From Escherichia coli (GTDB lineage Bacteria > Pseudomonadota > Gammaproteobacteria > Enterobacterales > Enterobacteriaceae), in assembly GCF_024223415.1 (NCBI RefSeq), contig NZ_CP100500.1: a stretch of DNA of 64,000 bases, one strand, 5' to 3'. The position numbers were made by a program, and so were the translations under genes. Below, in pieces: positions 36,308 through 39,568 of the stretch (position 1 is the stretch's first letter; each line of letters starts with the position of its first letter). The notes beneath the pieces were generated by a model. The model made no database searches. It saw only the letters and a list, made by a program, of their open reading frames with translations, and was not told the origin of the DNA.

Positions 36308-37015
36308 ATGAAACCCGTCGTGCTGGTGGTGGATGATGACACGGCTATCTGCGCACTGTTGCAGGACGTGTTAAGTGAACATGTCTTTACGGTTTCAGTC
36401 TGCCATACCGGACAGGAGGCCATATTGCGTATTGAGGGCGATCCTGACATTGCGCTGGTGGTGCTGGATATGATGCTACCCGATACCAACGGCCTGAGGG
36501 TATTGCAGCAAATCCAGAAACTGCGTCCGACATTGCCGGTGGTGATGTTGACCGGCATGGGCAGTGAGTCTGATGTGGTGGTCGGGCTGGAAATGGGCGC
36601 GGATGATTACATCTGCAAACCGTTCACCCCGCGGGTGGTGGTCGCACGACTGAAAGCGGTGTTGCGACGGGTTGGTGCGCTGGCGGTTAATGACGAGAAA
36701 AGCGCCGGGCTGTCATTCAATGGCTGGTATCTCGATACCATGCGCTGCCAGTTGCACAATCCGCTTCAGCAACATGTCGAGTTAACTCAGGGCGAATATG
36801 GCTTGTTACTGGCTCTGGCGCAAAACGCGCGTCGGGTATTGAGCCGCGAGCAGTTGCTGGCGTTCACCCACAGCGACAGCGTGGAGGTGTTTGATCGCAC
36901 CATCGACGTATTAATCATGCGCTTACGACGCAAAATCGAACTCAACCCGCATCAGCCGATGTTGATTAAAACTCTGCGCGGTCTGGGGTATGTCTTCGCT
37001 GCCGACGTGCATTAA
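36308..37015 (+). CDS. OmpR-family (TorR-like) response regulator of the accessory cluster
   Basis: ORF 36290..37015; start at MKPVVLVVDDD (GGAG 8 nt upstream); receiver domain plus winged-helix C-terminus with VGLEMGADDY and FAADV motifs resembling TorR. Confidence 0.85.
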   Translation: MKPVVLVVDDDTAICALLQDVLSEHVFTVSVCHTGQEAILRIEGDPDIALVVLDMMLPDTNGLRVLQQIQKLRPTLPVVMLTGMGSESDVVVGLEMGADDYICKPFTPRVVVARLKAVLRRVGALAVNDEKSAGLSFNGWYLDTMRCQLHNPLQQHVELTQGEYGLLLALAQNARRVLSREQLLAFTHSDSVEVFDRTIDVLIMRLRRKIELNPHQPMLIKTLRGLGYVFAADVH

Positions 37016-38013
37016 TCCGACATTTCTGTTTGCAGCTCTTCCAGCGTTTTCGCCCCGTCGATGGCATTGGCGCATAACAGGCTTGCCCGCGCGCAGGCGT
37101 GTGCCAGTTTGATGCTCTCGGTAAGCGTCCAGCGTTCATGGCAGCCATATAAAAATCCGGCACAAAATGCATCGCCCGCGCCGACGCTGCCGATAATTTC
37201 CCGTTGTTCTAACTTTTGCGAAGGGATCCACACGCCGCCCTGTTCTGGGGTCTCTCCCCACGCCCCTTCCGGGCAGTGGATCACCACCCGCTGGCGCACG
37301 CCCGCATCTAACAGTTCACGCGCGGCGGCAGCAATATGCGCGATATGCGGTTCGCCGTTGGGTAACCGAATTTCCAGCCCGCTAAACTCCCCGGCCTCCA
37401 GTTCGTTAATTACCAGATAATCCAGATGGCGCAACGCGGGCAGCACCAGTGGCTGATAACGCGGATCGCCCTTACGGGAGACCAGGTCGAGTGAGGTTTC
37501 AAAGCCAGTATCACGCATTTGCGCCAGCAGGCGTGCGCTACGGGTGCCGTAAACATCGTCCGGCATATCCAGGCTGTCGAGCAACAGTAAATAGCCGAGA
37601 TGGAAAATCTTCATGGTGTTATCGAGCTGATCGAACGCCGGAAGATCCAAAAGTCTGTTTGCACCCGGCGAATGGAAAAACGTCCGCTGCCCGCTTGGGT
37701 CTGTCATCACCTGCGACATCGACGTCGGGGCAAAGGTAGTGCGCTGCACATGCTGACGATTGACGTGATATTGCTCAAGCATCGCCATGATGTAATCGCC
37801 GTCGCTGTCCTGACCGATTAGCCCAACCGCCTGTAACGGCAGCCCGGTGCGCATTTTCGCCAGCGTCAGCAGGACGTTAAGCGGCGCACCGCCGGTGGAG
37901 CGTTCGCTGTGGGTGATCTCCGCCAGCCAGCCGCGCTCTGGCCACTGGATAATCTGATGGACGTGGTCAACCAACATATTGCCTGCGGCGATAATCCCTT
38001 TACGCTCCATCAT
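37012..38013 (-). CDS. PfkB/ribokinase-family sugar kinase
   Basis: 333-aa ORF with conserved GAGDAF anion-hole motif near the C-terminus; start overlaps the aldolase stop (ATGA). Confidence 0.8.
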   Translation of the reverse strand: MMERKGIIAAGNMLVDHVHQIIQWPERGWLAEITHSERSTGGAPLNVLLTLAKMRTGLPLQAVGLIGQDSDGDYIMAMLEQYHVNRQHVQRTTFAPTSMSQVMTDPSGQRTFFHSPGANRLLDLPAFDQLDNTMKIFHLGYLLLLDSLDMPDDVYGTRSARLLAQMRDTGFETSLDLVSRKGDPRYQPLVLPALRHLDYLVINELEAGEFSGLEIRLPNGEPHIAHIAAAARELLDAGVRQRVVIHCPEGAWGETPEQGGVWIPSQKLEQREIIGSVGAGDAFCAGFLYGCHERWTLTESIKLAHACARASLLCANAIDGAKTLEELQTEMSD

Positions 38014-38870
38014 GCCTGCCCCGCACTGCCAAAAATACGCATCTGTTGTGCAACCGTATCGCTGATGGCGGCTTCCACTGCCAGCAGTAACTCGGCAAAC
38101 TCGTCATACATCGGCTGACGGTGCGCCATTCGGGCCTCAACGGCAGCCAGCGCCGCTTGCGACATGCCAGTGTAGAAATTGATTTTGTGGATACCCAGTT
38201 CGATGGCGCGGCGGAAATCGGCATCGCTAATCCCTGAGCCGCCGTGTAATACCAGCGGGATAGCAGCCTGCTGGCGGATAGCGTCGAGGCGCGGGAAATC
38301 GAGTTTCGGTTCGCCGCGATATTTGCCGTGTGCATTGCCAATCGCCACGGCCAACGCGTCAATGCCGGTACGGTCGACAAAATCACGCGCCAGTTGCGGA
38401 TCGGTAAACAGGGATTCATCGGCATGACCATAGAGTGCACCGCCTTCGTCGCCACCCACCGCGCCCAGTTCAGCTTCTACCGATACGCCAACGGCATGGC
38501 ACATTTTCACCACTTCCCGCGTCTGGCGGACATTTTCTTCATACCCCAGCGTGGAGCCATCAAACATTACCGAGCTGAATCCCAGCCGCAACGCTTGCAC
38601 CACCGATTCAAAATGCAGTCCGTGATCGAGATTTAACACCACCGGAATGGCATGACGCGCCGCTTCAAATTTCACTGTCTCGACCAGGGAATCCAGCGAG
38701 ATATATTTAAAATGTACTTCGGCAATGTTGATAATAAAGGGCGAACGTTCTTGTCTGGCAGCAGCAAACAAGGCGCGTAAAAAGTGCGAGTCCAGCACAT
38801 TAAACGCACCTAACGAATAGTGATGTTCGCGGGCATGTGCCAGCCCTTCAGCGAGATAAATCAATGGCAT
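38010..38870 (-). CDS. Class II ketose-bisphosphate aldolase family protein (GatY/KbaY/FbaA-like)
   Basis: 286-aa ORF, family-level recognition of class II aldolase TIM-barrel motifs (LDHG, HGGSG). Confidence 0.8.
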   Translation of the reverse strand: MPLIYLAEGLAHAREHHYSLGAFNVLDSHFLRALFAAARQERSPFIINIAEVHFKYISLDSLVETVKFEAARHAIPVVLNLDHGLHFESVVQALRLGFSSVMFDGSTLGYEENVRQTREVVKMCHAVGVSVEAELGAVGGDEGGALYGHADESLFTDPQLARDFVDRTGIDALAVAIGNAHGKYRGEPKLDFPRLDAIRQQAAIPLVLHGGSGISDADFRRAIELGIHKINFYTGMSQAALAAVEARMAHRQPMYDEFAELLLAVEAAISDTVAQQMRIFGSAGQA

Positions 38871-38884
38871 AACGTTATCCTTAT

Positions 38885-39568
38885 TCAGCGGAACTGGCGG
38901 TATTCGTTACACAATACCAACTGTGCAGGTTCGTCTTCGTCAATCAGGTTGTAGCGGTCCAGTGGCTGTAAAAAGTGGTTATCGTGGTCGTCGTCATTGA
39001 CAGAAGAGACTTCGCCAACCAGAACATCGCCAAAGCCGGTTTCCGCCCAAAAGCTGTGATACAGGCCGGGCGGCAGGCAGATACTTTCGCCGGGAGACAG
39101 GCGCAACTGAGTGCCTGCAGTATGTTTCTGGCGGCAGCCGTCTATCACCACCGTAACGTCACTATCAGCCGTTTGCTCGTTACTATCGGCATTCCACAGT
39201 TCAACAATTAAATTACCGCCGCCGCGATTGATAATGTCCTCACGCTTACGCCAGTGAAAATGCATTGGCGTGACCTGCGCATCGCGCACATGCATGATCT
39301 TCTCGGCGTAACATTTCACATACGGCATTCCTTTTGCTGAGCCGTTACGTAGGGTAAACAGCGTCAGCCCGTGTGCTGCAAAGTTGTTGCGACCAAAAGC
39401 GGTAACATCCCAGCCGAGTTTAAGATCAAAAACCTCCTCCCACGCGGCGGTGTCGAGCTGCTGCCATTGAGCAGGCGAGAAACTGGCAAAGGGCGGCAGA
39501 TGTACGTCATGTTGCGAAAAGAATTGCCGTGTATGGCCGAGAATGTCGTTTATAGCGGAGCGTTTCAT
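38885..39568 (-). CDS. Cupin-type sugar isomerase (D-lyxose/D-mannose isomerase family)
   Basis: 227-aa ORF with His/Glu metal motif (HFHWRKRED); resembles YdaE-type lyxose isomerases. Confidence 0.75.
   Translation of the reverse strand: MKRSAINDILGHTRQFFSQHDVHLPPFASFSPAQWQQLDTAAWEEVFDLKLGWDVTAFGRNNFAAHGLTLFTLRNGSAKGMPYVKCYAEKIMHVRDAQVTPMHFHWRKREDIINRGGGNLIVELWNADSNEQTADSDVTVVIDGCRQKHTAGTQLRLSPGESICLPPGLYHSFWAETGFGDVLVGEVSSVNDDDHDNHFLQPLDRYNLIDEDEPAQLVLCNEYRQFR

Follow-up and report, generated by a model that had tools for sequence, protein, structure and literature searches.

Predicted ketose 1-phosphate cleavage by the lmu operon of an Escherichia coli OI-167 island

The stretch of Escherichia coli DNA analyzed here (64,000 nucleotides of contig NZ_CP100500.1, NCBI RefSeq assembly GCF_024223415.1; hereafter the window) carries on its minus strand three adjoining genes for a predicted cupin D-lyxose/D-mannose isomerase of 227 aa (lmuI, 38885..39568), a class II metal-dependent aldolase of 286 aa (lmuA, 38010..38870; PF01116 and NF005284) and a PfkB-family sugar kinase of 333 aa (lmuK, 37012..38013; PF00294). 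A first-pass annotation made from the sequence alone had singled out this trio at 37012..39568, had noted that the kinase start overlaps the aldolase stop, and had put the three genes forward as a pathway for a rare sugar. The three open reading frames (ORFs) were found at those coordinates, the stop codon of lmuA and the start codon of lmuK overlap in the sequence ATGA, the spacer between lmuI and lmuA is 14 nt long with a Shine-Dalgarno-like AAGGA, and RefSeq annotates the same genes in identical DNA; chance ORFs are ruled out, and the family assignments likewise go far past anything expected by chance. The pathway is not, however, an unrecognized one. The trio is the distal, enzyme-encoding half of the lmuXYZIAK operon in the OI-167 island (lmvR-lmuKAIZYX-lmvK), a horizontally acquired island that was described, and its genes named, in enterohemorrhagic E. 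coli (EHEC) by Yang et al. (2023, mBio; PMC10128022). Both the locus and the scheme of the trio pathway were thus already known, and their detection here is a rediscovery of the published operon.

The identification as OI-167 follows from the near-identity of the trio to those of EDL933 and Sakai (99.5% over 2557 nt), from an isomerase 98.7% identical to Z5688, and from the same genes, gene order, insertion site and LmvR box as in OI-167 of EHEC O157:H7 EDL933. The cluster begins with lmvR (36308..37015, plus strand), which encodes an OmpR/PhoB-type response regulator whose best NCBIfam matches are all regulators of this type, every one below its curated cutoff. After lmuK, lmuA and lmuI come, also on the minus strand, lmuZ (39623..40564) for the periplasmic sugar-binding protein of an ABC importer, lmuY (40583..41557) for its permease and lmuX (41554..43074), the first gene of the operon, for its ATPase, and then the divergent lmvK (43188..45449, plus strand) for a hybrid sensor histidine kinase. 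ORFs, profile matches and RefSeq agree on lmuZ, lmuY and lmvK; RefSeq starts were used for lmvR and lmuX, whose longest ORFs begin at 36290 and reach 43131, respectively. The operator of LmvR, the direct repeat ATATGA-N3-ATATGA, was defined by DNase I footprinting (PMC10128022), and its one exact match in the window lies upstream of lmuX on the minus strand (43147..43161), where we predict by this motif that LmvR binds. The cluster is flanked by yjcS on one side and by yjdP-phnP on the other, which is the insertion site published for OI-167. In contrast to EDL933, the host here is not O157:H7, and over 9.9 kb that include the allele found here, its DNA shows 100% nucleotide identity with that of NCTC9112, of an O78 strain and of isolates from pig, calf and poultry.

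Considerable experimental knowledge of this operon exists (PMC10128022). The six lmu genes were shown by RT-PCR to be cotranscribed, which agrees with the co-operonic arrangement that had been read from the gene layout, and LmvK together with LmvR, an activator, turns the operon on with mannose or lyxose (PMC10128022). Growth on lyxose requires oxygen and is impaired by deletion of lmuI or of lmuZYX, while lmuK and lmuA are dispensable there (PMC10128022). LmuI converts D-lyxose to D-xylulose and D-mannose to D-fructose, with a Km for mannose of ~20 mM; purified LmuK uses ATP on fructose in an ADP-coupled assay; and LmuZ is ~60% identical to a mannose-binding protein of Herbaspirillum (PMC10128022). 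A manA mutant grows on mannose only very slowly (~10 days), needing both LmvR overexpression and lmuKAIZYX, and an isomerase-kinase-aldolase route the same as that read from the trio is drawn as a hypothesis in Figure 3A of that paper (PMC10128022). In EHEC, the main known contribution of the island is signaling rather than nutrition, in that LmvK and LmvR activate type III secretion upon mannose; thus, the metabolic half of the island may be nearly dispensable in that host. As first noted, then, the trio adds nothing new on E. coli O157-type islands, and what value remains in it is biochemical.

LmuI matches the NCBIfam model NF051472 ("D-lyxose/D-mannose isomerase") at 439 bits, where the curated cutoff is 350, and matches PF07385 over residues 1-223 (E 1.6e-92). 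It is identical at 224 of its 227 residues (98.7%) to the D-lyxose isomerase Z5688, which was crystallized (PDB 3KMH/3MPB); the cupin metal-binding motifs MHFHWRKRED (102-111) and YHSFW (170-174) are identical to those of 3KMH, and the three substitutions lie elsewhere. Both the family assignment and the characterized homologue of O157:H7 that the first-pass annotation had mentioned are therefore correct. Judged by this near-identity, LmuI of the present strain is taken to be a D-lyxose/D-mannose isomerase, the activity reported for Z5688/LmuI.

LmuA matches NF005284 ("ketose 1,6-bisphosphate aldolase") at 575 bits (cutoff 406) and is ~40% identical to true fructose-bisphosphate aldolases (FBAs; 35-41% across the class II aldolases for fructose 1,6-bisphosphate [FBP] and tagatose 1,6-bisphosphate [TBP], i.e., FbaA, GatY, KbaY and the FBAs of Bacillus and Staphylococcus). 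With these enzymes it shares the fold (its AF2 model, with a pLDDT of 89.8, gives a TM score of 0.9 to FBAs), the zinc-ligand and catalytic residues (D82, H83, E134, E142, H181, H209 and N231, of which Asp82 and Glu142 are catalytic) and the 1-phosphate site (Gly182, Arg185, Ser212 and Thr234). It differs from them in the ligands of the distal phosphate. [quoted passage not shown] We checked this numbering on the Giardia enzyme, where Ser50 lies in QCSRGA, Arg259 six residues past Asn253 and Arg280 in FDPRDY, and mapped the positions onto LmuA with HMMER pairwise alignments and two MAFFT alignments. The serine, found in the motif VSEGA in true FBAs, corresponds to Ala50 of LmuA (IAEVH); Arg259, identified by its distance from Asn253, corresponds to Ser237; and the partner-subunit Arg280, found in the motif YDPRK, corresponds to Phe258 (YDEFA). 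One of the MAFFT alignments moves the last position by one, to Ala259, and no basic residue is nearby in either alignment. In addition, Asp288 of FbaA corresponds to Tyr233 of LmuA. By its aligned residues, LmuA is thus a member of PF01116 that lacks the defining feature of the bisphosphate aldolases, namely the distal 6-phosphate ligands (Ser49/Ser61, Arg259 or Lys, and Arg280/Arg331 in DPR), which hints that it would cleave a sugar with one phosphate, not two. The earlier assignment to class II aldolases of the ketose-bisphosphate type accordingly stands for the class, the fold and the database name; as far as the active-site residues can tell, the bisphosphate part of that label does not suit LmuA.

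The name of NF005284 and the ~40% identity to true FBAs could also be read in a canonical manner, in which LmuK is a fructokinase that yields fructose 6-phosphate, host phosphofructokinase (PFK) converts the latter to FBP, and LmuA simply adds FBP (or TBP) aldolase capacity to lower glycolysis whenever the operon is expressed. We consider this unlikely, given that LmuA has other residues in place of all three 6-phosphate ligands, as does nearly every kinase-linked aldolase of the homologous loci described below, while every bona fide FBP/TBP aldolase compared, i.e., FbaA (Ser61 and Arg331), GatY, KbaY, the FBAs of Bacillus methanolicus and S. aureus and a control FBA from one of those loci (L074), keeps the Ser/Thr and Arg. 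Nearly all of the kinase-adjacent aldolases have Ala at the first site, where AEV is nearly invariant, and Phe, Tyr, Leu or Ile at the last; the exceptions, which retain basic residues, are the two weakest matches (L074 and L069, 33-38% identical). Nor is there an obvious reason why a redundant glycolytic aldolase should stay translationally coupled to a kinase across phyla.

Two other pairs of a PF01116 aldolase and a PfkB kinase provide a closer comparison. In E. coli K-12, the genes for the PfkB kinase YdjH and the class II aldolase YdjI adjoin each other as lmuK and lmuA do; YdjI, which RefSeq annotates as a ketose-1-phosphate aldolase, is 40% identical to LmuA and, like LmuA, is without the 6-phosphate serine (Gly) and the partner-subunit arginine (Phe). 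YdjH is only 24% identical to LmuK, though it is the top structural match, and the ydj cluster is unlike lmu in that it contains dehydrogenases and major facilitator superfamily transporters but no cupin isomerase and has an eight-carbon uronate as its annotated substrate. The second pair belongs to sulfoglycolysis (the sulfo-EMP and sulfo-EMP2 pathways, named after Embden-Meyerhof-Parnas), which follows the same logic of an isomerase, a PfkB sulfofructose 1-kinase (YihV/SqiK) and a sulfofructose-1-phosphate aldolase (SqiA). SqiA (PDB 8Q57-8Q5A) also belongs to PF01116, has neither the 6-phosphate serine nor the arginine of the partner subunit, and is about as good a match to LmuA as FBAs are; the loss of Arg280 in this class II sulfofructose-1-phosphate aldolase has been reported (PMC10665668). 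LmuA has in common with the YdjI/YdjH and SqiA/SqiK pairs both the lost partner-subunit arginine and the adjacent PfkB kinase gene. These likenesses suggest that LmuA groups with the PF01116 ketose-1-phosphate aldolases, and cleavage of a ketose 1-monophosphate is predicted for it. A comparison of folds was of no use for specificity, as the LmuA model fits FBAs, SqiA and YdjI with equal quality; it is the residues that discriminate. A sulfosugar pathway, which the matches to YihV and SqiA had prompted us to consider, was rejected: OI-167 differs from sulfoglycolysis loci in having no gene for a sulfolactaldehyde reductase or dehydrogenase, an exporter or a sulfoquinovosidase, and its inducers are mannose and lyxose.

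For LmuK, the PfkB assignment is borne out by a match to PF00294 and by the motifs G41-G42, N203/E206 (NxxE) and G278-A-G-D281 (GAGD, the anion hole and catalytic Asp). LmuK reached no NCBIfam equivalog at its cutoff, and the public database names of its homologues, distant ones included, were all generic among the members examined; the family consists of ~335-aa proteins, with 321 clusters at 50% identity at E < 1e-30. The AF2 model of LmuK (pLDDT 95.5) has a ribokinase-like fold, with Foldseek E of 1e-23 to YdjH and ribokinases. YdjH (3IN1/3H49) is the nearest solved structure to the model, and the best PDB sequence match of LmuK is the sulfofructose 1-kinase YihV, a weak match (E 2e-10) over the N-terminal part only; together, they lend weak support to a 1-kinase. 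We infer that LmuK phosphorylates fructose at C1.

To place the trio in a wider context, the LmuK family alignment was used to scan one genome per species, and 80 loci were mapped by tblastn and ORF clustering. The complete cluster, with genes for the histidine kinase, LmuX, LmuY, LmuZ, isomerase, aldolase, kinase and response regulator, was found among Enterobacterales in Citrobacter, Enterobacter, Kosakonia, Lelliottia, Leclercia, Pluralibacter, Pseudescherichia, Serratia and Pantoea. The clusters of Aeromonadaceae (Aeromonas and Tolumonas; L003-L005, L032 and L035) keep the aldolase and the PfkB kinase but contain an additional xylulokinase gene between those for the binding protein and the isomerase. 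This xylulokinase (e.g., L035:6973-8415, which matches TIGR01312 at 561 bits with a cutoff of 380) is absent from every enterobacterial version. Identity between the E. coli and Aeromonas (L035) proteins is uneven, at 84% for the binding protein, 74% for the aldolase, 58% for the isomerase and 50% for the kinase.

The xylulokinase bears on how lyxose is used. Because growth on lyxose needs neither lmuK nor lmuA and because xylB lies inside the cluster in lineages that presumably have no xyl operon, a xylulokinase and not LmuK would act in the pentose branch, where xylulose formed from lyxose would become xylulose 5-phosphate through the action of the host XylB in E. coli and of the cluster-encoded enzyme in Aeromonadaceae. 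A monophosphate aldolase would equally be compatible with a route in which LmuK converts xylulose, formed from lyxose, to xylulose 1-phosphate and LmuA cleaves the latter to dihydroxyacetone phosphate (DHAP) and glycolaldehyde, and the oxygen requirement on lyxose would fit such a route if, as we infer, glycolaldehyde requires oxidative metabolism. Activity of LmuK on xylulose is not reported, however, and the unimpaired growth of the lmuK and lmuA deletion mutants on lyxose and the bona fide xylulokinase beside the isomerase in Aeromonadaceae led to the rejection of this route for lyxose, which we regard as very improbable. The same two observations make it most likely that the kinase-aldolase branch serves mannose, a common hexose, via fructose. 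The description of the trio as a pathway for a rare sugar hence fits the branch made up of the isomerase and the transporter, for which lyxose is such a sugar, but not the kinase and the aldolase.

Outside these groups, kinase and aldolase genes are adjacent, and often overlapping, across phyla. A PF01116 aldolase gene lies within 3.5 kb of the kinase gene in 20 of the 39 loci outside gammaproteobacteria and Verrucomicrobiota, the kinases of which are 38-47% identical to LmuK. If a genome has one to three such genes, we estimate the chance of a PF01116 gene falling within ~7 genes of a locus at well below 1%, and the linkage is therefore real. At least 13 loci outside gammaproteobacteria have a PF07385 isomerase gene adjoining that of the LmuK-like kinase, and the module occurs in Alistipes and other Bacteroidales, in Clostridia, in a member of Phycisphaerae (Planctomycetota) and in a Marinimicrobia genome. 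In the Alphaproteobacterium Oryzibacter, the gene of an NF005284 aldolase overlaps that of the kinase and no isomerase gene is nearby. The commonest additional neighbors of the Bacteroidales copies are GH92 alpha-mannosidases (6 proteins) and SusC/SusD. In one planctomycetal locus, a 279-aa ORF (L095:7718-8557) follows the gene of the LmuK homologue with a 4-nt overlap; this ORF had no Pfam or NCBIfam match and could be an unrecognized partner enzyme.

Taking the residues, the genetics and the gene neighborhoods together, we lean toward a two-branch pathway as somewhat the better-founded account, in which lyxose would pass through xylulose and a xylulokinase as proposed above, whereas mannose would be isomerized by LmuI to fructose, LmuK would add a phosphate to fructose at C1, the carbon adjoining the keto group, and the resulting ketose 1-phosphate would be cleaved by LmuA to DHAP and glyceraldehyde. 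Three points speak for the ketose 1-phosphate route: LmuA has no usual means of binding a distal phosphate, its translation is coupled to that of the kinase, and the two genes stay together across phyla. The general course that the first-pass annotation had outlined, from aldose to ketose to ketose phosphate and then to DHAP and an aldehyde, agrees with the published hypothetical scheme and fits the lost 6-phosphate ligands.

The logic of such a route is well established with other enzymes. In the L-fucose (FucI-FucK-FucA) and L-rhamnose (RhaA-RhaB-RhaD) pathways, an aldose is converted to a ketose, the ketose is phosphorylated at C1, and the product is cleaved to DHAP and an unphosphorylated aldehyde. 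Mammalian fructolysis by ketohexokinase and aldolase B likewise proceeds by C1 phosphorylation and yields DHAP and an unphosphorylated aldehyde. The fucose and rhamnose pathways differ from lmu in using FGGY kinases and PF00596 class II aldolases, and the liver pathway in using a class I aldolase, so that no homology to LmuA is implied. A fuller version of the proposal, to which we give a little less than even credence, is that LmuK is a fructose (ketose) 1-kinase and LmuA a class II fructose-1-phosphate aldolase, which with LmuI would amount to a bacterial version of liver fructolysis that takes free mannose to DHAP and glyceraldehyde, bypassing mannose 6-phosphate and FBP. Proteobacteria, Clostridia, Planctomycetota and Marinimicrobia would all have conserved this module, as would Bacteroidales of gut and rumen, there within alpha-mannosidase loci, and NF005284 would be misnamed. 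If the ketose 1-phosphate route is true, a widely annotated family of "bisphosphate aldolases" carries the wrong name, and many gut and rumen bacteria burn the mannose released by alpha-mannosidases in an unrecognized way. In the literature, we found no paper assaying a member of NF005284, and PMC10128022 was the only one found on a kinase of the LmuK family, on a characterized isomerase-kinase-aldolase cluster or on a bacterial class II fructose-1-phosphate aldolase. As far as the literature searched shows, the residue argument and the phyletic spread therefore appear to be new, as predictions and not as results.

Several observations weigh against this proposal. The loss of the ligands speaks against a bisphosphate substrate yet leaves the actual substrate unspecified. 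The Foldseek ranking of LmuK barely discriminates, as ribokinases score the same as YdjH, and the ADP-coupled assay of LmuK measured ADP formation alone (PMC10128022). The island has no gene for the disposal of glyceraldehyde, and among the mapped loci neither a triose kinase nor an aldehyde dehydrogenase recurs as a neighbor. Some LmuK-like kinases also occur without an aldolase, which is the pattern expected of an ordinary fructose 6-kinase and thus favors the canonical role considered above. In five loci (L006, L037, L048, L055 and L063), the kinase gene lies beside one that encodes a mannitol dehydrogenase-family protein of ~400 aa (PF01232; closest in NCBIfam to mannitol-1-phosphate 5-dehydrogenase, though under the cutoff of that model) with no aldolase, and in one of them (L037) an LmuI-like isomerase gene lies between the two; 17 LmuK-like kinases of Verrucomicrobiota are solitary; and a Fibrobacterota contig has an isomerase-kinase pair without an aldolase of its own, 4 kb from housekeeping PFK and FBA genes.

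The very slow growth on mannose and the Km of LmuI (PMC10128022) likewise count against the proposed hexose branch, as mannose may not be the optimal substrate. They would be explained if the natural substrate were a different sugar that shares the C2-C3 configuration of mannose and lyxose (for instance D-talose, L-ribose or a mannose that is 6-deoxy or modified in some other way), with mannose and lyxose merely tolerated and with the kinase and aldolase specific for the ketose of the true substrate; the remodeled distal pocket of LmuA (Ala50, Tyr233 and Phe258) would suit a neutral or hydrophobic tail. This appears improbable to us, because mannose and lyxose induce the operon, LmuK accepts fructose, the binding protein resembles a mannose-binding protein and the Bacteroidales copies lie among GH92 alpha-mannosidases, while the cluster-encoded xylulokinase argues that xylulose, and hence lyxose, is a real intermediate.

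Several further features of the island and its surroundings were observed. The lmvR and lmuK genes are convergent and their stop codons overlap (37012-37015), which leaves no space for a terminator between them; in other genera, Citrobacter among them, 30-170 nt separate the two genes. A scan of the island for promoters and terminators returned sites no more numerous than in shuffled sequence. A GC-rich hairpin without a T-run (39590-39612, minus strand; -20.8 kcal/mol) in the 54-nt spacer between lmuZ and lmuI is no more stable than those of shuffled sequences (z -1.1) and is probably unremarkable.

The island also differs from OI-167 of EDL933 in its position within a 32-kb inverted segment bounded by two copies of IS1397. 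The copies (24249-25741 and 57498-58987) are in inverted orientation and 99.3-99.7% identical. The ~32 kb between them extend from yjcO-fdhF-mdtPON-yjcS across OI-167 and the phn operon as far as yjdN and are inverted relative to the gene order of NCTC9112 and K-12; the island is therefore inside an IS-bounded inversion. In the chromosome of the matching strain, the neighborhood includes a gene for the type III secretion effector-like EspX5 (window positions ~33800-35100, which are approximate as they derive from NCTC9112 coordinates), the nrf nitrite reductase operon and fdhF, which constitute an ordinary core-genome context. Among 5426 complete E. coli genomes, 410 have the trio, in each case chromosomal and in single copy. 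Most of these are O157:H7, and the trio is also found in O55:H7, O145:H28, O78 and O169:H41 strains, in avian pathogenic E. coli and in isolates from pig, goat, baboon and otter, so that its distribution in E. coli is broader than the "EHEC-associated" one given previously (PMC10128022).

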